From an uncultured Candidatus Saccharibacteria bacterium (GTDB taxonomy: Bacteria > Patescibacteriota > Minisyncoccia > 2-02-FULL-40-12 > GWA2-44-9): a stretch of 64,000 bases of DNA. The position numbers and the translations under genes are program-made. Under the pieces are notes generated by a model, which worked only from the letters and a program-made list of their open reading frames with translations, had not been told where the DNA came from and ran no database searches. Location of the stretch: the NCBI GenBank assembly GCA_964488565.1, contig CAZAUE010000001.1:42687-106686 (forward strand), read 5' to 3'. This document shows, piece by piece, positions 6,007 through 62,778 of the stretch; the stretch's first letter is position 1; every line of letters begins with the position of its first letter.

Positions 6007-6684
6007 ATGAAAGACCCCAAATTCCCAATGCGCATAAACCAGTATCTTGCTTGGCAAAAGCACTCTACCCGCAGAGGCGGAGATGAGCTTGTCCAAAAGA
6101 AGCAGGTTCTAATCAACGGAAGATTTGCAGAACTTGGAGACAAGGTTAACGAGAAAGATATTGTGGAAGTATTAAAAAGCAAGAAGCCTACAGGCTATCT
6201 TTATTTTGCTTACAATAAGCCCGTAGGTGAAACAACAGATACTCCAATCTTTCTCAATAAAGACATATTTCCTCTTGGCCGATTAGACAAAGATTCTCAT
6301 GGTCTAATGCTCCTAACAAATGATGGAAGAGTCACCGACAGACTTCTTAACCCTGAATATGCCCATGAAAAAGAATACGTAGTTTCAACTAAAGAAAAAC
6401 TAAGAGCCAACTTCAAACAAAAAATGGAGGCGGGTGTGGACATAGAAGGATATAAGACAAAAAATTGTAAAATTGAAATCGTGAATGACTTTACTTTCAG
6501 AATAACCCTAACCGAGGGCAAGAAACATCAAATCAGAAGAATGTGTGTTGCTCTTCATAACGAAGTTCGAGATCTCAAGAGAACTAGAATAATGAATATT
6601 CGTCTAGAAAAACTACCCCCTGGTAGTCATAGATCTATCGGCGGAGAAGAACTCAAAACCTTTCTAAAAAGTTTAGGACTCTAG
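6007..6684 (+). CDS. RNA pseudouridine synthase, RsuA/RluB family (S4 domain + catalytic domain)
   Basis: S4-like N-terminus (MRINQYLAWQ...VLINGRF), the YFAYNKPVG motif, and the catalytic Asp motif in PLGRLDKDSHGLMLLTNDG. Confidence 0.8.
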   Translation: MKDPKFPMRINQYLAWQKHSTRRGGDELVQKKQVLINGRFAELGDKVNEKDIVEVLKSKKPTGYLYFAYNKPVGETTDTPIFLNKDIFPLGRLDKDSHGLMLLTNDGRVTDRLLNPEYAHEKEYVVSTKEKLRANFKQKMEAGVDIEGYKTKNCKIEIVNDFTFRITLTEGKKHQIRRMCVALHNEVRDLKRTRIMNIRLEKLPPGSHRSIGGEELKTFLKSLGL

Positions 6685-6688
6685 TTGC

Positions 6689-7921
6689 CTATTCGTAACG
6701 CAAAGCCTCGATGGGGCTCTTCATAGATGCTCGACGAGCTGGATATATACCAAAAATAAATCCTATTACAGTAGAGACTCCTACGCCCAACAATGCACCC
6801 GACCAAGGTGAAGAAAAAGGGAAATTCAGTCCGGCAAATTTATTAATTAAAATAGTTCCTGCATAACTTATTAATGAGCCTGAAATAATTCCGATAATAC
6901 CTCCGCTTGCTGTTAAAATTATCGCCTCAACCAAAAACTGGAAAAGAATATCCTTGTTTTTAGCACCCAAAGCTTTTCTGAGTCCTATTTCTCTTGTTCT
7001 CTCAGTTACAGAAACAAGCATTATATTCATTATTCCCACCCCTCCGACAACCAAAGAAATTCCAGCTATTGAAGCAAGGAGAATGGTAAGCATATCGGTT
7101 ATTTGAGTAAAAGTTTTAGCAGCCCCCTCTGGTGTTTGTACATAAAAATCAGCAGTTTGGCCCTCTTCCAGACCATGACTATCTCTTATTGTATTCCTCA
7201 CACTTTCAACCATGTCTGATAAAAGAGAAGAATCTGCGGTTCTGATAATTATTCTTTGAATGTAATCATACCCCAAAATATACTGCTGAGCCGTTGTGTA
7301 AGGAGTTATGACAACTTTGTCGTAATCCAAAAACAAAGACTGTCCCTTAGGCTCAAGAACCCCGATAACACGGTATGACCTGTCTTTTATTTTAACTTTC
7401 TCACCAACAGCATCCGACTCTCCAAAAAGTTCTTCCTTAACTTTTGAACCCAGAACAACAACAGCTGATTTTTGATCCACATCCTCATCATTAATAAATT
7501 CCCCATCTGAAAGTTCTAATTTATCTATAGTCTGATTGCCAGGAGAAGCACCCAAAAGAGATCCATAGAATTCTTCGGACTCAAAAAACACATTTGCTGG
7601 TCCAAAAACAAAAGGCACAATTAAATCAGCTTCTGGGACATTGATCTTGTTGCGAAGAGCAATAACATCTTTATCGTGCAAAGAATCAGTAAGCACACTG
7701 CCCTCACTAAAATCTCCTTCTTTCCCTGGTATTACAAAAATATTATTAGAACCAAAACTTTCAAGCTCTCCAAGAATAAACCCCTGAGCACTTCCACCGA
7801 GGGAGGTAACTATTGTAATAGCGGCGATACCAATAACTATCCCGAGAACAGTAAGCATTGTTCTTGCTTTATGTGTCGTAAGCCCCGATATCGCCATTTT
7901 TAGAATATCTTTAAAATCCAT
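6689..7921 (-). CDS. ABC transporter permease, MacB/FtsX-like
   Basis: N-terminal TM, a large periplasmic domain, and a C-terminal FtsX-type 3-TM bundle. Arranged as an operon with the upstream ATPase and adaptor. Confidence 0.8.
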   Translation of the reverse strand: MDFKDILKMAISGLTTHKARTMLTVLGIVIGIAAITIVTSLGGSAQGFILGELESFGSNNIFVIPGKEGDFSEGSVLTDSLHDKDVIALRNKINVPEADLIVPFVFGPANVFFESEEFYGSLLGASPGNQTIDKLELSDGEFINDEDVDQKSAVVVLGSKVKEELFGESDAVGEKVKIKDRSYRVIGVLEPKGQSLFLDYDKVVITPYTTAQQYILGYDYIQRIIIRTADSSLLSDMVESVRNTIRDSHGLEEGQTADFYVQTPEGAAKTFTQITDMLTILLASIAGISLVVGGVGIMNIMLVSVTERTREIGLRKALGAKNKDILFQFLVEAIILTASGGIIGIISGSLISYAGTILINKFAGLNFPFSSPWSGALLGVGVSTVIGFIFGIYPARRASMKSPIEALRYE

Positions 7922-21056: not shown

Positions 21057-21605
21057 TTAGAAATTGAACCTGACTCCGGCGACCCCGCGACCATCGCCGA
21101 TGGCATAGGTTCCCCAGAGGGCAACCTTACCAACCGACACTTGGACGTAGGGACCGGTTCCGATGAACCGCTGGCTGTTCACGCCGACGGCGACGGTCTT
21201 GGTCATCTGGAACGTTCCCAGATAGCGATACCAATAACCGCTTCCGCCGTGTTCGTGGAGGGAAAGGAGCGACCATCGCCCCGAGCCGAGCCACACGCTA
21301 CCGCCACCACGAAGCGGGTTGTCGGCAGTCTCCAGTCCAAGACTAGCAGACACCTCCACCCACTCGGCGGGAGCGTACGTGAGGCCGGCGTAGCCCTCAC
21401 TCCACTCCTCAGATGTCAGCGTCCAAGCCGACCATCCAAGTTTGCCCTTGAGTGGGCCGTGGACGTAGACGTTGAGCTGAGGCGTAACACCTTCCTCGCT
21501 CACCGTGTTGAACGACTCAACGTACCCAGAGGCCTGCTGAGCCTGAGCAGTCACGACCGTGAGGGTCATGATGATCGTCACGAGAACGAGTTTTGTCAGC
21601 TTCAC
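21057..21605 (-). CDS. GC-rich (~60%+) ORF encoding a signal-peptide-bearing outer-membrane beta-barrel-like protein (GTG start). Foreign or anomalous cassette A.
   Basis: Signal peptide MKLTKLVLVTIIMTLTVVTAQA. Alternating aromatic/Gly beta-strand pattern and a C-terminal ...GVRFNF ending in Phe, as in Gram-negative OMPs. A SD sequence AAGGAGAGAG lies 6 nt upstream, with its own promoter and terminator. Confidence 0.55.
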   Translation of the reverse strand: MKLTKLVLVTIIMTLTVVTAQAQQASGYVESFNTVSEEGVTPQLNVYVHGPLKGKLGWSAWTLTSEEWSEGYAGLTYAPAEWVEVSASLGLETADNPLRGGGSVWLGSGRWSLLSLHEHGGSGYWYRYLGTFQMTKTVAVGVNSQRFIGTGPYVQVSVGKVALWGTYAIGDGRGVAGVRFNF

Positions 21606-34609: not shown

Positions 34610-35029
34610 CTACTTTCTCGGCGTGACGGTCGGAACCACACTCTGTTCCGACTTCACGCTGAGGTGGTACTGCCACACCACGTAGGTGTAGCCGGGGTAG
34701 GTCACGTCTTCCACCACGCGGGTGGGGACGGTGGCGACGACCTTCCGAACCGTGCTCGGAGGCAGGCTGTCGACCTCTTCGATCAACGGCATGCCTCGGT
34801 CGTCACGAACCGGGACCACCACGGACGTCCGCGGAAGCGAGCGGTCCGCGAAGTCGAACACGCGAGCGTCGCCTCCGCCCTTGATCGTGGCCTTGTAGGT
34901 GAACGCCAAGGCGTACACCTTGTTGGTCTCGATGCCGTCGCCCCGCCCGAAATTGGCAAAGGCGATAATGGACACGACGGCCACGACAAAGATGGTGGCG
35001 ATGAAAACGAGAACGCGGGTCCGATTCAT
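34610..35029 (-). CDS. GC-rich (~65%) ORF encoding a 139-aa N-terminally membrane-anchored hypothetical protein (cassette B)
   Basis: SD AAGAGG 7 nt upstream; N-terminal TM (VLVFIATIFVVAVVSIIAF). Composition (R/V/T/P-rich) and codon GC are unlike host genes. Confidence 0.5.
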   Translation of the reverse strand: MNRTRVLVFIATIFVVAVVSIIAFANFGRGDGIETNKVYALAFTYKATIKGGGDARVFDFADRSLPRTSVVVPVRDDRGMPLIEEVDSLPPSTVRKVVATVPTRVVEDVTYPGYTYVVWQYHLSVKSEQSVVPTVTPRK

Positions 35030-35094
35030 TTCTGCCTCTTTCTGTTATGCCCCCTAAGGAGCGGTTGGTAAGGGTCTAAATCAACTCTGTAATT

Positions 35095-38078: not shown

Positions 38079-38087
38079 AACAAATTA

Positions 38088-38600
38088 AAGCGCCCCGCCA
38101 GATTTCTCCAGCGGGGCGGTCGTGCCGTCTTCTTCCGTGCCTGTTGCGCGTCTGTGCGGTATCTTTGTCGATGGCTTACAGAGGCCTCGGCTCTGGGCCA
38201 TAGGAGCGCCACTTGCATGTGCCTCCTAAACGCGGGTTGCAGATTGCCTGTGTGGTTGGTTCCGGTGCCAGCTTACAGGACCTTCTTTCCTGTGCTGGGT
38301 GCCGTATCGCGACGACGTACTCTCATGTTCCCCCTTCTGAGGAGGGTGGTGGAAGGGGCGCGCACCGCCCCTTCCAAGTGGTTGTGAATCCCTCGCCGTT
38401 TAGCGGCGGGAGACCGGGTTATCCACCATTCCCCGTGGGTTAACAGAACGTAGGTGCGAAGACTCGTCCGCCACCGTCCCGTTCTGTGCACAGTCCAGCG
38501 TGGCGATAGGTTCACAAGAGGCTTATCGCGAGATTGCTCTCGGACCTCCTTGTCCCTTGTCGCCACGCCGGACCGTCTTGTTGGCTCTCTAACTTAGAGC
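38088..38600. other. ~500-nt GC-rich (~62%) non-coding block with dense hairpin potential. Possible structured RNA or foreign DNA; identity unresolved.
   Basis: Only overlapping composition-driven ORFs on both strands, none protein-like. Perfect hairpins include CGCCCCGC...GCGGGGCG (38091-38118) and GGAAGGGGCG-CGCA-CGCCCCUUCC (38352-38375). A long-range ACAGAACG...CGUUCUGU pairing is possible. Confidence 0.35.
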
Positions 38601-38831
38601 CCGAAAAAAACCAGCAAATTACGACTACCGAACTACCTTAGAGCGACTATGGATGTCCTTACCCCTATTCCTTCAGGCCAATTATTATTACTTGAATGCC
38701 TGGATATTGAGATATTTACGAGGTGTTTGCTGGCTTTTTTCGAGCCCTTTTTAGGAGCCCGATATGTAAAGAACTTAGTGTTTTTAAAGTATAGCAGATA
38801 GCCATAACAATGTCAAGTACTAAGATTTAAT

Positions 38832-38875: not shown

Positions 38876-39226
38876 TTACTCGTCTTCGTCGACGACGTCG
38901 TCTTGGACCTGGAAATCGGTCCTTGAATCGACGATGTCTTCGAGGGGGACGAATGGCTCGTTCAAAGCCCACTCGTCGCGGGTCTCGACGACACGTCGCA
39001 CGTGACCCCAATAGCTCTCGCTGACGATTGCCTTGGACTTGAAGGTCTTGCCGATGCGCCGAGTGCGGAGGCGATCATTGCGAACAATCCGCGCCTCCTC
39101 GTCAACGACTTCGGGCGTGAACGTCGCCGTTGCGAAACAACCGGACTGACTGCGGTTCTCAGGAACGAACGTCCCTTCGAATTCGCGCGTCATCTCGGCT
39201 GCCATCCTCTGGGCTCGTGAACTCAT
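38876..39226 (-). CDS. GC-rich (~62%) ORF encoding a 116-aa acidic hypothetical protein (cassette C)
   Basis: SD GGGGGT upstream; the start overlaps a 1-codon minimal ORF (ATGTAATGA). Acidic C-terminus (QVQDDVVDEDE). Confidence 0.45.
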   Translation of the reverse strand: MSSRAQRMAAEMTREFEGTFVPENRSQSGCFATATFTPEVVDEEARIVRNDRLRTRRIGKTFKSKAIVSESYWGHVRRVVETRDEWALNEPFVPLEDIVDSRTDFQVQDDVVDEDE

Positions 39227-39271
39227 TACATACCCCCGTCGTTATGCCCCCTTGGGCTTGATTGAAAACAA

Positions 39272-43080: not shown

Positions 43081-43530
43081 ATGAAGATTCAGGCCAGCCT
43101 CGTCTCGATGTCGAAGAACCAGAAGCGCGCCATGGTCACCGTGACCACGGGCGAGGGCGCCCACCGCCGGTCCACCACCCGCCACATCGGCTTCACGGAT
43201 GGTGCATGGTTCGGTCACAACCCCGACGAGCGAGCAGTTCCGCTCAACCGGCGCTACACCGCCGAGCTCCTCGCCGCCAAAGGCGACCTCGCCGGCGAGC
43301 AGGCGACGCTCACCCAGCTCGAGGAAGAACTCCTCAAGCTGGAAACGACCGAGCCGACGACGGAAATGGACACGGCCATGATCGCCGGCTACAAGGCCGA
43401 GCTGGCCGAGGCCATCAGCGAGGCCAAGGCCCTGGTCAACTTCGCCGAGGCATCCGTCGCCGAAGCCGAGCTCAAGCTCCACATCGTCGAGAAGGAAGTG
43501 CCGCTCGAAGTCGAGTTCGGCATCTTCTAG
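43081..43530 (+). CDS. GC-rich (~64%) ORF encoding a 149-aa hypothetical protein with a C-terminal coiled-coil/alanine-rich helix (cassette D)
   Basis: Strong SD GAAGGAG 9 nt upstream of ATG. Protein MKIQASLVSMSKNQKRAMVTVTTGEGAHRR...AELAEAISEAKALVNFAEASVAEAELK. Composition unlike the host. Confidence 0.5.
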   Translation: MKIQASLVSMSKNQKRAMVTVTTGEGAHRRSTTRHIGFTDGAWFGHNPDERAVPLNRRYTAELLAAKGDLAGEQATLTQLEEELLKLETTEPTTEMDTAMIAGYKAELAEAISEAKALVNFAEASVAEAELKLHIVEKEVPLEVEFGIF

Positions 43531-58213: not shown

Positions 58214-58302
58214 GTAGGGTTAATAATAGCAAATTTAGGCCAAATTGGCAATCCACAGGCAAAAATTTTTAAAGCTCCAGAACCCAGCCACCTGAAGACA
58301 CG

Positions 58303-58402
58303 CCTCCGATAAAACCGCTCCTCCGTGAGCGGTTTTATCTCGGCTATAATCGCATTGTCTAATCGCCGACTGATGGACTCCGTCCAATATTTTATCAGTC
58401 GG
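58303..58402. other. Two strong palindromic hairpins in the S8-protease/cassette-F intergenic region
   Basis: GAUAAAACCGCUC-CUCCGU-GAGCGGUUUUAUC (13 bp) at 58303-58334, and GCCGACUGAU-N19-AUCAGUCGGC (10 bp) at 58364-58402. Confidence 0.4.
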
Positions 58403-58461
58403 CTTTGCCAACGTCTCAAATGTCTTCAGATGGCTGGGTTCCTCCATTTAAATGTTTTCAT

Positions 58462-58517: not shown

Positions 58518-59168
58518 CTATACCAATAGCCAAGCGATAGTGGCGACCACCCAACTAAGTTCATTGGCCATCTCACTTATTGCAAGCCAAATGCGGTTGC
58601 GGTCCCAACCCGCCTCCCTAACCATGAAGTAAATCTGGCCAAGGCGAATCAGAATCGTAAGGTGCCCCACTACTACCGACAAGCCAGGCGTACCAGAAGC
58701 ACCTTCGGCCAGAAACTTCCAGGCCAGAAGCACTTGAGGTACCGACTTGTAAGCTATAGCGAAAGACGCTTTCGCTATAGGATCGCTCAATGATAAACGG
58801 CGAATAGTGCTTATGAAAATCACCACCGCCGTCAGGACGACTCCTGTTGCAAGTGTTGTTGTGTCCTTATCATTCCATTGATACGCCGGATTCGTTCCGG
58901 CCGCGACCAAAACACAAGAACCAAGAACAAACCAAACAACATAAGTCGCAATGGCTTGTCGAGTGACGCGACTAGGAGCGGTGCGATGAGCACCAATACC
59001 CAATGCCAAGTGAAACACCAGGTATGCAGTAGCCAGACCAAACTGAGCTAAGCTGAATCCTGTCACATCTGTTACCAACCGCAGAACATACGCTCCGCAA
59101 AATATAACCGCACCGATGATCTGGACCCAAAAGAGCAGGTCCGCAACCATCCTTTTCTTTCCTGACAT
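58518..59168 (-). CDS. Moderately GC-rich (~50%) ORF encoding a 216-aa polytopic membrane protein, hypothetical (cassette F)
   Basis: SD AAAGGAGG 5 nt upstream; ~6 TM helices. Its GC is clearly above that of neighbouring genes. Confidence 0.5.
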   Translation of the reverse strand: MSGKKRMVADLLFWVQIIGAVIFCGAYVLRLVTDVTGFSLAQFGLATAYLVFHLALGIGAHRTAPSRVTRQAIATYVVWFVLGSCVLVAAGTNPAYQWNDKDTTTLATGVVLTAVVIFISTIRRLSLSDPIAKASFAIAYKSVPQVLLAWKFLAEGASGTPGLSVVVGHLTILIRLGQIYFMVREAGWDRNRIWLAISEMANELSWVVATIAWLLV

Positions 59169-60190: not shown

Positions 60191-60832
60191 TTATCTGACC
60201 TTATTTAAAACTTTAAAGTCTTTTTTGAGAACACCCATGGTGGTTCTGTTGTATATAGCCACAGCAGGGTGATAGAGAGGCACAATCCTGATTTTACCAT
60301 AATTAGTCTTGGTATCAAAAGTCTTTCCGTGTATCTGACTAATGGGTTTTAGCTGATTTTCCAATCCGAATTTTCTCATAATATAGTCCATTGAAAAACG
60401 CCCGAGAGTAGCTATCACTTTAGGCTTAATTATTTCTATCTGCTTATCAAGATATGGTCCGTAAATCTTTATCTCCAAAGGAAGTGGATCCCTATTAAGG
60501 GGTGGCCTGTCTTTGACAATGTTTGTTATATAAACATTTTTTCTGTTTATTCCTACTGAAACAAGCAACTCATCAAGAATTTTCCCAGATGCTCCACAAA
60601 ACGGTTTTCCAGTTTTAGCTTCATTTCTACCAGGAGCTTCTCCTATAAACAAAATCTTGGCACGATGACTTCCTTCTCCAATTACGGGAAAAGCTTTGTT
60701 TTTAATTCTTTCTTTATAAAGTGGGGACTTTTTTAAATTCACCACCTCATCCTCAATTTCGTTTAATAATTTAATTCGTTTATCTGAAGTTGGCATATCG
60801 ATTAGTGTAAGTAAAATTAAAAAACAGAGCAA
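60191..60832 (-). CDS. Uracil-DNA glycosylase, family 4
   Basis: GEGSHRAKILFIGEAPGRNEAKTGKPFCGASGKILDELL (GEAPG...PFVG-type motif) and the HPA (YHPAVAIY) motif. Confidence 0.8.
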   Translation of the reverse strand: MLCFLILLTLIDMPTSDKRIKLLNEIEDEVVNLKKSPLYKERIKNKAFPVIGEGSHRAKILFIGEAPGRNEAKTGKPFCGASGKILDELLVSVGINRKNVYITNIVKDRPPLNRDPLPLEIKIYGPYLDKQIEIIKPKVIATLGRFSMDYIMRKFGLENQLKPISQIHGKTFDTKTNYGKIRIVPLYHPAVAIYNRTTMGVLKKDFKVLNKVR

Positions 60833-60917
60833 ACCCAGTAGTGAGTTTTCCGAAAGTTTTTAGCGACCTTGTCGCAATCGAAAAATCTACTACTGGGCAA
60901 ATGCTCTGTTAAAAAAG

Positions 60918-60943
60918 AGGGGGCGACTTCGTGTCGCCCCTTA
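60918..60943 (-). terminator. Intrinsic terminator of cassette E
   Basis: GUCGCCCC...GGGGCGAC stem, followed on the minus strand by CUCUUUUUUAAC. Confidence 0.6.
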
Positions 60944-60953
60944 AGTCTGGTCG

Positions 60954-61106
60954 CTACAGTGTGTGGCCAGATTTCTCGGACTTCCGTCGGCGGTTCGCCC
61001 GCCGAGCGGCCTGCTTCCGAGCCCAGCTCATGCCACCCTGGCTGGACTGGCCGTACTTGTGAAGCTTGTGCAGGTGTCGTTTCACCCGCATTTCACGTTT
61101 GGTCAT
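60954..61106 (-). CDS. GC-rich ORF encoding a 50-aa highly basic protein (cassette E, gene 2)
   Basis: My own translation gives MTKREMRVKRHLHKLHKYGQSSQGGMSWARKQAARRANRRRKSEKSGHTL. SD GGAAGGGGG lies 6 nt upstream. It is below the ORF-track cutoff. Confidence 0.45.
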   Translation of the reverse strand: MTKREMRVKRHLHKLHKYGQSSQGGMSWARKQAARRANRRRKSEKSGHTL

Positions 61107-61124
61107 TTCTATCCCCCTTCCTAG

Positions 61125-61373
61125 CTAGTCGTTGACGGCGTCGACGGCGACAGCGCCCGCCCAAGTCGCTTCTCCAGCGATCTTGCGCAAAACAGCCATC
61201 AAGCCGTACTTCTGCGCATAGGCCTTCGCGGCCACCGAATCGCCACGCTTCAGGATACGACGAAGCTTGCGCTCCGACGTCCTGGCGAAAGCCGGCGCAA
61301 ATTTTCCGTTCCGGCGTCCGGCCGAACCGGGCTTGCCCTTCTTGCCTTCCTGACCCTTCTTCTCGGTCCCCAT
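61125..61373 (-). CDS. GC-rich ORF encoding an 82-aa basic protein (cassette E, gene 1)
   Basis: SD AGGAGGG 6 nt before the ATG (MGTEKKGQEGKKGKPGSAGRRNGKF...). It begins 19 nt after the stop of the upstream host membrane-protein gene. Confidence 0.45.
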   Translation of the reverse strand: MGTEKKGQEGKKGKPGSAGRRNGKFAPAFARTSERKLRRILKRGDSVAAKAYAQKYGLMAVLRKIAGEATWAGAVAVDAVND

Positions 61374-61392
61374 CTGACCCTCCTCATGAATA

Positions 61393-62778
61393 CTAACGTT
61401 GTCCCAAGATTGTATCACTAAATTTTAGTGATGTCAACCCAAAGCTCAACAAAGACAGCGTGAGCCAAAAGATGAATCTTCCCTGCTGAAGTGTCCACAA
61501 GAAGTGGTCAAATAAACCAAAGAATAGAAAAGATAGAACTATGAGCAAAAAAGAATAATGGTATAACTTACTCATTTTTGTTCTCAAGATGAAATCCTTA
61601 ATAAGGAGAAGCAGAAAAATGGCAAACACAGTGATGCCCAATATTCCATTCTCTGAGTAAATCAGGAGATAAATATTGTGTACTGGCTGATAAAGATTAC
61701 GCGATAAATTTTGATCTTTAGTCATTAGCCAATCAACAAAATTACCGGAACCAACTCCAAACCAGTTCAAGGACTTTAATGATTCTTTGTTGTAAAAAAT
61801 TCTCAGTTGAACAGCCTCCTCCCCAGAAGATATCTTTACCCGACTAATCGCTTCGGGCCAATAAAACACCGAGAAACCAGAAGTAACAATGAGTGTTGTT
61901 ATAAATATTAGAGCTAATTTTTTATTCCAATACTCTTTCCCGAACTTTAAGCGCACGAGGATAATTCTTATCAAAAAATTAATAAACAGAATAAATATTG
62001 CTACTCGTGCAAAGGTAAAAAAGAAGGCTAAAAGAGTTAATCCGAACACGAACAGGTAAAATTTGCTTATATTCTTGTAGATCCATAGATAATAAAAAGC
62101 AAAAATTGCCAAAAATAAATACGCGGCCAGAATATTCGGATGGGGCGTGGTGCCATAAGCACGAATAATCTTTTCTCCTGCCATGTTGTAAAAAGATGCG
62201 ATACCAGACATGTTGAGCCCAATAACACTTTCCCCGAGTAACCTGAGACCCAAATCCGATTGTTTAAAAAATTGAAGCACTGCGATTATTGCCTGAAATA
62301 ATCCCCCAGCAATAATAACCATCAGTGAATTGCCAAAACCAAATCTCGTCACAGCATAATTCTTAATATAAAGATAAAATAAAATAAATTCCAAAAGTTT
62401 TATCCAATTATAGAAGGCAAGTTGAGGACTAATAGCGTTTCTGATTGAAACCGCCGAGATAATAATGAATAAGGCCAGAAAAAAATCTGGTTTTTGGATT
62501 AGGTGTTTGGTGTTAGATATTGAGGGTTTAAAAAAATTAGCATAATACTTGATATTGAATATTTGATACGTCTTCGGAGAATTCCCAAGCCAAAACAAAA
62601 ACAAGATCAAAAGCAGTAGGTCTGTTGCGTACAAAGACGCCGACTGCCATTCATTAAAATTCCAGCTCTGATGCCACAAAATTTTCCGTACCTGAAACGG
62701 AATAGCAAATAACAGAAAATAAAATAAAAATTGTTCTGACCTATTTAACAAATAGTGCATAGACAATACCCGCCCCAA
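61393..62778 (-). CDS. Polytopic membrane protein, O-antigen ligase/Wzy-like
   Basis: 461 aa with at least 10 TM helices and a large loop. The family assignment is tentative. Confidence 0.4.
   Translation of the reverse strand: MGRVLSMHYLLNRSEQFLFYFLLFAIPFQVRKILWHQSWNFNEWQSASLYATDLLLLILFLFWLGNSPKTYQIFNIKYYANFFKPSISNTKHLIQKPDFFLALFIIISAVSIRNAISPQLAFYNWIKLLEFILFYLYIKNYAVTRFGFGNSLMVIIAGGLFQAIIAVLQFFKQSDLGLRLLGESVIGLNMSGIASFYNMAGEKIIRAYGTTPHPNILAAYLFLAIFAFYYLWIYKNISKFYLFVFGLTLLAFFFTFARVAIFILFINFLIRIILVRLKFGKEYWNKKLALIFITTLIVTSGFSVFYWPEAISRVKISSGEEAVQLRIFYNKESLKSLNWFGVGSGNFVDWLMTKDQNLSRNLYQPVHNIYLLIYSENGILGITVFAIFLLLLIKDFILRTKMSKLYHYSFLLIVLSFLFFGLFDHFLWTLQQGRFIFWLTLSLLSFGLTSLKFSDTILGQR

Follow-up and report, generated by a model that had tools for sequence, protein, structure and literature searches.

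A small GC-rich two-gene unit, apparently old and kept in place, encodes two predicted basic proteins in an AT-rich Patescibacteria chromosome

Small blocks of deviant composition that carry their own promoter and intrinsic terminator and are wedged between two resident genes are described from phages as morons, a concept of Hendrix and Juhala, and small, strongly basic proteins are described as nucleoid-associated and as ribosomal proteins. Here we analyzed a unit with likeness to each of these in a stretch of 64,000 nucleotides, hereafter the window, from an uncultured Candidatus Saccharibacteria bacterium of the Candidate Phyla Radiation (CPR; GenBank assembly GCA_964488565.1, contig CAZAUE010000001.1, positions 42,687 to 106,686 of the forward strand). 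The GreA protein encoded in the window belongs to a cluster at 90% identity that bears the name Candidatus Yanofskybacteria. The unit studied here, referred to as the E unit, is located on the minus strand and runs from the 3' end of a gene for a Wzy-like protein through two genes, E1 and E2, to a terminator, and all of these features were recovered at the places given in a preliminary description made from the sequence alone. With moderate confidence, we read the E unit as a conserved and autonomously transcribed two-gene unit of the CPR chromosome, in which GC-rich codons are kept and whose products would bind polyanions. Its most unusual aspect is the long-term upkeep of a GC-rich synonymous composition in an AT-rich genome.

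Most of the initially proposed layout was borne out (Table 1). E1 starts 19 nt downstream of the stop codon of the Wzy-like gene, each of the two small genes is preceded by a Shine-Dalgarno (SD) sequence of its own, that of E1 being kept as AAGGAGG or GGAGG in the orthologs, and a predicted sigma70-type promoter, TTGACA-N17-TACAAT with a TG extended -10 preceding TACAAT, is placed within the final 15 codons of the Wzy-like gene. The unit is closed by a terminator consisting of an 8-bp GC stem and the T-run CTCTTTTTT, and an equivalent GC hairpin closes it in L007, L009, L010, L014 and L023. The GC-rich block following the Wzy-like gene was likewise confirmed: windows of 200 nt have a GC content of 0.59-0.62 across 60900-61399 compared with 0.32-0.35 on either side, and the island as a whole (60891-61420) reaches 0.587, the average of the window being 0.391. 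The isoelectric point (pI) above 11 that had been proposed for both proteins applies to E2 (12.0) and not to E1 (10.7). A mechanical list of open reading frames (ORFs) contains E1 as a 97-aa version with a GTG start; however, the 82-aa version starting with ATG is preferred since SD, gene callers and orthologs all agree.

As GC-rich DNA yields ORFs in many frames, several of which overlap here, the coding status of both genes was tested directly. The GC content at the three codon positions (GC1/2/3) is 0.61/0.52/0.75 for E1 and 0.59/0.49/0.75 for E2, and this coding pattern of GC3 > GC1 > GC2 is missing from the nearby GC island at 38273-38566. The ratio of nonsynonymous to synonymous changes (dN/dS) amounts to 0.17-0.26 for E1 and 0.13 for E2, and differences in length between orthologs are whole codons. 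The exact E1 protein occurs in the same context on 13 independently assembled groundwater contigs, and further orthologs exist at 86% and 71% identity. E2 orthologs, which include P0004 and P0045-P0049, are 57-96% identical, and in L010 and L023 most third positions have changed with the amino acids kept. The preliminary description had allowed for both ORFs being artefacts of GC-rich composition, which did not hold given the codon periodicity, the dN/dS values of 0.13-0.26 and the orthologs in many related metagenomic genomes. The sequence evidence strongly indicates that E1 and E2 are true protein-coding genes under purifying selection. No gene has been called between E1 and UDG in L001, and E2 is left uncalled in the assemblies of this genome; E2 is therefore an unannotated gene.

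In every relative recovered, the order of genes is MgtC, Aa_trans (amino-acid transporter), Wzy_C, a slot, UDG, VTT, Peptidase_S8 and MFS, and the Wzy_C-family gene is syntenic in all of them. The slot is occupied by E1, E2 or both, or by E1 together with a DksA/TraR-type zinc-finger gene. Compared with the window, E1 is 43-86% identical, in step with the 44-85% identity of the flanking proteins, L014 being the exception, and a promoter of the form TTGAC(A/T)-N16-17-TGATA(C/T)AAT precedes E1 or E2 in all relatives for which upstream sequence is available. Since the same slot and the same embedded promoter occur in lineages with such divergent flanks, and since synonymous sites are saturated, the unit does not represent a recent insertion; what had been described as an inserted cassette is, instead of a recent arrival, a Wzy-UDG slot with its promoter that is kept across the Paceibacteria clade. 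The E unit and its promoter appear to be old and vertically inherited. The perfect palindrome which forms the promoter spacer had been suggested as an operator. It occurs only once in the window, and none of the orthologous promoters retains its sequence, their spacers being otherwise unconserved; hence it provides no evidence for an operator. The palindrome is lineage-specific and probably fortuitous.

The GC richness of E1 is found in every lineage. Its orthologs have 54-66% GC and a GC3 of 0.59-0.82, compared with 0.28-0.47 in the adjoining genes. Four-fold degenerate sites of E1 differ in 65% of the between-lineage comparisons, the random expectation being 70%, and are thus saturated; their composition (C 0.40, G 0.29, T 0.23, A 0.09) may be compared with that of UDG at the same loci (A 0.22, C 0.20, G 0.21, T 0.37). 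As these sites are saturated yet GC-rich, the GC richness of E1 is stationary and no unameliorated relic. The DksA-like gene of the Wzy-UDG slot is not GC-rich (GC3 0.30-0.41), so that the GC richness is gene-specific, which counts against a process acting on the locus; biased gene conversion at a recombination hot spot was considered as a cause and is disfavoured because this gene of the same slot is AT-rich. These findings suggest that the composition of E1 is under selection. The E1 coding sequence folds into a more stable structure than its dinucleotide shuffles in all nine lineages (mean z of -2.42 versus -0.39 for UDG), and the whole E transcript of the window has a fold z of -3.48. Selection for a generally compact and stable mRNA would be the simplest reading.

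E1 has a predicted mass of 8.7 kDa and a net charge of +11.5. Structure prediction by AlphaFold2 (pLDDT 80.6) gives a disordered tail with KKGKPGSAGRRNGKF for residues 1-25 and a four-helix domain for residues 26-81, the four helices having pLDDT values above 90. A profile built from three close E1 sequences and searched against 1.84 billion representatives retrieved 39 homologs at E<=1e-3, nine of them at E<=1e-10. The family has the motif KKG(K/R)PxSAG(R/K)RxGKF ... ERKLRRVLKRNG..AA..(Y/W)A...G....LRKIAGE in common, these protein motifs are kept at 43-56% identity, and one member is annotated from a Candidatus Paceibacterota metagenome-assembled genome. Two syntenic orthologs, P0021 and P0008, possess long C-terminal tails rich in Lys, Ala and Arg. 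Profile searches, which included all PDB chains, returned no match of E1 in Pfam, NCBIfam, PHROGs, PADLOC or the PDB sequences, and all Foldseek matches in PDB and BFVD had E>4, the top non-significant rows being ribosomal proteins. Scans member by member gave scattered single matches only; one family member matched the PHROG 'Lsr2-like' model at no better than E=0.025, and a weak profile match of the E1 helices to the NACHT-HEAT repeat protein P0034 was not treated as homology. The literature yielded nothing on the E1 family or on GC-rich cassettes in CPR bacteria. By its sequence, E1 appears to represent a previously undescribed and uncharacterised family of about 40 representatives.

E2 is even smaller and more basic (6.0 kDa, net charge +13.8), with the consensus MKKRExRIKRHLHxLHKYGQSSxGGMSWARKQASRRANRRKKTxKSGYTM and a helix-loop-helix predicted by AlphaFold2 (helices 3-19 and 28-46). 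It has no match in Pfam, NCBIfam, PHROG or PADLOC scans, and no relatives beyond this clade were found among GTDB contigs, among PDB sequences or by Foldseek (E>4); E2 thus seems to be confined to a narrower group of the same Paceibacteria clade than E1. A relationship of E1 and E2 as paralogs was rejected by hhalign. The E2 protein of L014 (6272-6424) shares 96% identity with that of the window, and the DNA of the two genes hardly differs over ~100 nt in their centre, in contrast to 43% identity for E1 and 56-84% for the flanking proteins; this suggests recombination or a nucleotide-level constraint on E2. Between the E2 terminators and UDG of L014 there is an extra GC-rich non-coding element (~6480-6690, ~170-200 nt), which has no significant Rfam family.

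Nucleic-acid binding is probably the most plausible function of E1 and E2, based on their charge, the conserved basic tail motif of E1 and the Lys/Ala/Arg-rich C-terminal tails in some orthologs. The tail segment is KKGKPGS in E1 and KKGRP(S/G/R)SAG(R/K)R in homologs, with pLDDT values of 52-66, and the first Arg of an AT-hook core is replaced by Lys; there is no match to the Pfam AT_hook family. In the reading that we favour, a strong promoter contained in the final codons of the Wzy-like gene would give rise to a GC-rich mRNA that is short and highly structured, ends at its own terminator and encodes the two unrelated small basic proteins. The target of E1 and E2 would then be a polyanion: chromosomal DNA, as for nucleoid or chromatin proteins, or else RNA or ribosomes. 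E1 may have been acquired long ago from a GC-rich pool of phages or mobile elements as a moron-like block between Wzy and its original terminator, and the GC-rich codon choice may be kept by selection on the mRNA, for stability or structure, rather than reflect recent transfer.

Several observations weigh against this interpretation. The core of the E1 tail is KGKP or KGRP, compared with RGRP in a canonical AT-hook, and neither E1 nor E2 has any likeness in sequence or fold to characterised DNA- or RNA-binding proteins according to Pfam, NCBIfam, PDB and Foldseek. In L014, E1 is only 43% identical and the tail motif is lost, although this genome is a close relative, so that some lineages may not need E1. 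The E1 coding sequence of the window itself has a weak fold z of -0.95, and no conserved RNA structure was found in E1 (weak RNAalifold consensus of -13.5 kcal/mol, in which the covariation term is positive and thus a penalty), so that selection on mRNA structure is deduced only from the z-scores. Finally, none of the relatives recovered has an empty Wzy-UDG slot, and the insertion event itself is therefore deduced rather than observed.

CPR ribosomes have an unusual protein complement, and it might be speculated that E1 and E2 are highly expressed, lineage-specific ribosomal or hibernation-type proteins. Their very small size and extreme positive charge, the strength of the predicted promoter, SD sequences and terminator, and the ribosomal proteins among the best, non-significant Foldseek rows of E1 would be in line with such a role. 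We nevertheless consider it unlikely, as no ribosomal family was matched in Pfam or NCBIfam at E<=1-5 and nothing relevant was obtained from the PDB sequences, which include many ribosomes, or by Foldseek. Moreover, the genes are spread patchily, with E1-only and E2-only arrangements and replacement by a DksA-like gene, and relatives of E1 reside in early regions of phage-like contigs. The earlier proposal that the small basic proteins could be of ribosomal-like or histone-like type was not supported by any match to known families of this kind in Pfam, NCBIfam, PHROGs, PADLOC, the PDB sequences or Foldseek.

A member of a distant E1 subfamily, P0024, is encoded on a 70-kb contig of 59% GC which also carries phrog_10440, exonuclease and Sak4-like genes of the phage early type, and another distant relative is located on an IMG/VR contig of 62% GC; because of these contigs, the E1 family is regarded as shared with GC-rich phage-like elements. 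The E unit might be a recently acquired foreign cassette, that is, a moron-like or horizontally transferred block from a GC-rich donor which was placed after the Wzy stop and whose GC content is an unameliorated relic. Such an origin would be consistent with the sharp compositional boundary, a codon usage typical of a genome of ~60% GC and the presence of an own terminator followed by a second one of the host type. We regard this as rather improbable: the same genes, slot and promoter across lineages with 44-85% identical flanks largely refute a recent event, and the four-fold sites are saturated yet GC-rich. In addition, no close homolog of E1 or E2 was identified in GTDB genome contigs scanned with their alignments or in GC-rich genomes, and a scan of viral contigs with the E1-core alignment and tblastn against deposited phages gave nothing usable. 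The tandem terminators, a GC-rich one and an AT-type one downstream of it, would fit an ancient event in which the block came to lie between Wzy and the terminator that Wzy originally had. The AT-type hairpin, unbroken in L007, L009 and L014, is split in the window by an insert of 63-64 nt in its loop (60834-60897) that resembles a miniature inverted-repeat transposable element. Its terminal inverted repeats are CCCAGTAGT/ACTACTGGG, and 5 nt of the target, GCAAA, are duplicated (60829-60833 and 60897-60901). The window contains no second copy of this insert, which is fixed throughout all assemblies of the strain.

Minisyncoccota/Patescibacteria are reported to take up host RNA and to have a codon usage complementary to that of their GC-rich hosts (2026 preprint, bioRxiv 10.64898/2026.06.21.733656). 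Expression of the E unit and of four further GC-rich cassettes in the window might accordingly be coupled to a GC-rich host through host tRNAs or nucleoside triphosphates, or the products might act in the host; a GC3 of 0.71-0.89 in the five cassettes, versus a window median of 0.34, and the maintenance of this composition by selection would fit. However, the argument is entirely circumstantial, no mechanism for such a transfer has been described, and mRNA stability would account for the composition in a simpler way; we consider this coupling very unlikely. The notion of toxin and antitoxin components, or of another obligate two-component module, to which two small adjacent genes with a short spacer in one operon might point, has next to nothing left in its favour, since E1 and E2 occur independently of each other (Table 1), both are strongly basic, they are unrelated, and no toxin-antitoxin or defence family was matched in Pfam, NCBIfam or PADLOC. 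Hardly credible either is a structured non-coding RNA or compositional artefact with incidental ORFs: GC-rich DNA does give long ORFs in several frames, the transcript has a fold z of -3.5 and the neighbouring GC island 38080-38640 looks non-coding, but E1 and E2 display clear codon periodicity, a dN/dS well below 1, whole-codon indels and protein motifs kept at 43-56% identity, with no conserved RNA structure and no Rfam match.

Table 1. Features of the E unit, further GC-rich cassettes of the window and occupation of the Wzy-UDG slot in relatives
Feature	Position	Strand	Details
Wzy_C / O-antigen-ligase-like membrane protein gene	61393..62778	-	Pfam PF04932, E=8e-9; stop TAG at 61395-61393
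Sigma70-type promoter	61409..61437	-	TTGACA (61437-61432), 17-nt spacer, TACAAT (61414-61409); score 11/12
Palindrome	61414..61432	.	perfect 9+9, ATCACTAAA-N-TTTAGTGAT; forms the promoter spacer
SD of E1, GAGGAGGG	61378..61385	-	4 nt before ATG; read from sequence
E1 gene, 82 aa	61125..61373	-	ATG 61373, 19 nt past the Wzy TAG; stop 61127-61125
SD of E2, GGAAGGGGGA	61112..61121	-	within the 18-nt E1-E2 spacer; read from sequence
E2 gene, 50 aa	60954..61106	-	ATG 61106; stop 60956-60954
Intrinsic terminator of E1-E2	60910..60940	-	GGGGCGAC-ACGAA-GTCGCCCC (stem 60940-60920), then CTCTTTTTT
Second, AT-type terminator hairpin	60823..60910	-	arms AACAGAGCA / TGCTCTGTT; split by insert
Further single-gene GC-rich cassette	21057-21605	-	GC3 0.71-0.89 (range of the cassettes)
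Further single-gene GC-rich cassette	34610-35029	-	same range
Further single-gene GC-rich cassette	38876-39226	-	same range
Further single-gene GC-rich cassette	43081-43530	+	same range
Slot content E1 + E2			window, L007/8, L014
Slot content E1 alone			L009, L017, L019
Slot content E2 alone			L010, L023
Slot content E1 + DksA/TraR-type zinc-finger gene			L011, L013, L016

The predicted promoter of the E unit is among only nine that score at least 11/12 in the 64 kb. Five of these nine are located upstream of GC-rich islands, and the E unit is therefore assigned to a class of small GC-rich units with strong promoters in this genome. A GC3 above 0.5 is restricted to ORFs of the GC islands and a single 70-aa ORF at 58235-58447 (GC3 0.53). 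The four further cassettes each have a near-consensus promoter upstream and a hairpin terminator at the end, and none of them could be assigned to a family in Pfam, NCBIfam or PHROGs; viral sequences scanned for cassettes A and D gave nothing usable. Two of the four encode proteins with N-termini resembling signal peptides or transmembrane segments, and one product ends in ...RFNF like an outer-membrane barrel. The sequence GGGGGCATAAC is common to the minus-strand 5' untranslated regions of cassettes B and C2 (~35050-35062 and ~39232-39245), just upstream of the ribosome-binding site, and may be a shared leader element. At 38080-38816 on the minus strand there is a GC-rich stretch of ~560-700 nt which lacks codon periodicity, has a fold z of -5.3 and carries a TTGACA-17-TATACT promoter (38816-38788) and a terminator hairpin near 38085-38110. 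With no match in Rfam at E<=1, this stretch is a candidate for a large, undescribed structured RNA; in the Rfam scan of the window, tRNA-Gln was the only match at gathering score. A 216-aa multi-pass membrane ORF of intermediate GC content (0.50; 58518-59168, minus strand) occupies the variable slot between VTT and Peptidase_S8, in which the relatives differ or have no gene.

Going further, and with little confidence, E1/E2 and the other GC-rich cassettes might constitute a gene class of their own within AT-rich Patescibacteria: small genes under the control of the strongest promoters, whose 'foreign' GC-rich codons are retained by long-term selection. The purpose of such genes could be nuclease-resistant, structured mRNAs in an RNA-degrading organism, or a translation tied to GC-rich host resources. 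E1, with its AT-hook-like tail and a new fold, would then derive from phages and bind chromatin or RNA. If the other cassettes behave alike, the composition of codons or mRNA would be linked, in a way that can be tested, to very strong promoters and to the episymbiotic life of Patescibacteria. The small-protein part of CPR genomes is almost wholly 'hypothetical', and our analysis adds to it a small-protein family that appears to be undescribed and common to CPR chromosomes and GC-rich phages, as well as a second, unannotated gene of 50 aa. A sharp compositional island need not be equivalent to recent horizontal transfer, which bears on genomic-island detectors and on arguments from amelioration.

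The E unit and the other cassettes share with integron gene cassettes the short single-ORF units, the atypical composition and the orphan proteins. In contrast to integron cassettes, they are isolated over 64 kb and each has its own promoter, and the 3' hairpin is a GC stem with a T-run and no attC; the sole 3' inverted repeat is that 8-bp stem with its T-run, no explicit integrase search having been made. Similarly, E1 and E2 resemble small basic ribosomal proteins, including phage-encoded ones of the bS21 type, in their tiny size, high basicity and helical make-up, in the strength of their expression signals and in having contexts in both CPR and phages, whereas they match no ribosomal family and their spread is patchy and narrow. 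Among nucleoid-associated proteins, likeness is seen to the AT-hook-like Lsr2/H-NS, to mycobacterial HU/MDP1 with its Lys-Ala tails and to chlamydial Hc1. This likeness concerns size and charge as well as the disordered Lys/Arg/Gly tail, which has G-(K/R)-P at its core, and some E1 orthologs bear H1-like Lys/Ala/Arg C-terminal tails. Unlike these, E1 has no sequence or fold likeness and its helical domain is unmatched; for HU/IHF, H-NS and Lsr2, no homology or fold was indicated by Pfam, NCBIfam or PDB, and all Foldseek matches had E>4. As to phage morons, the E unit corresponds to them in being a small block with an own promoter and intrinsic terminator, with a deviant composition, wedged between two resident genes, and in the relatives of the E1 family on phage-like contigs. 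In contrast to morons, it is located on a bacterial chromosome, where its neighbours are housekeeping genes (Wzy_C, UDG, VTT, MgtC and Lon) and phage genes are absent nearby, its promoter is embedded in the host gene upstream and shows a host-like, AT-rich composition, and the unit appears to have long been fixed and syntenic across the whole clade.

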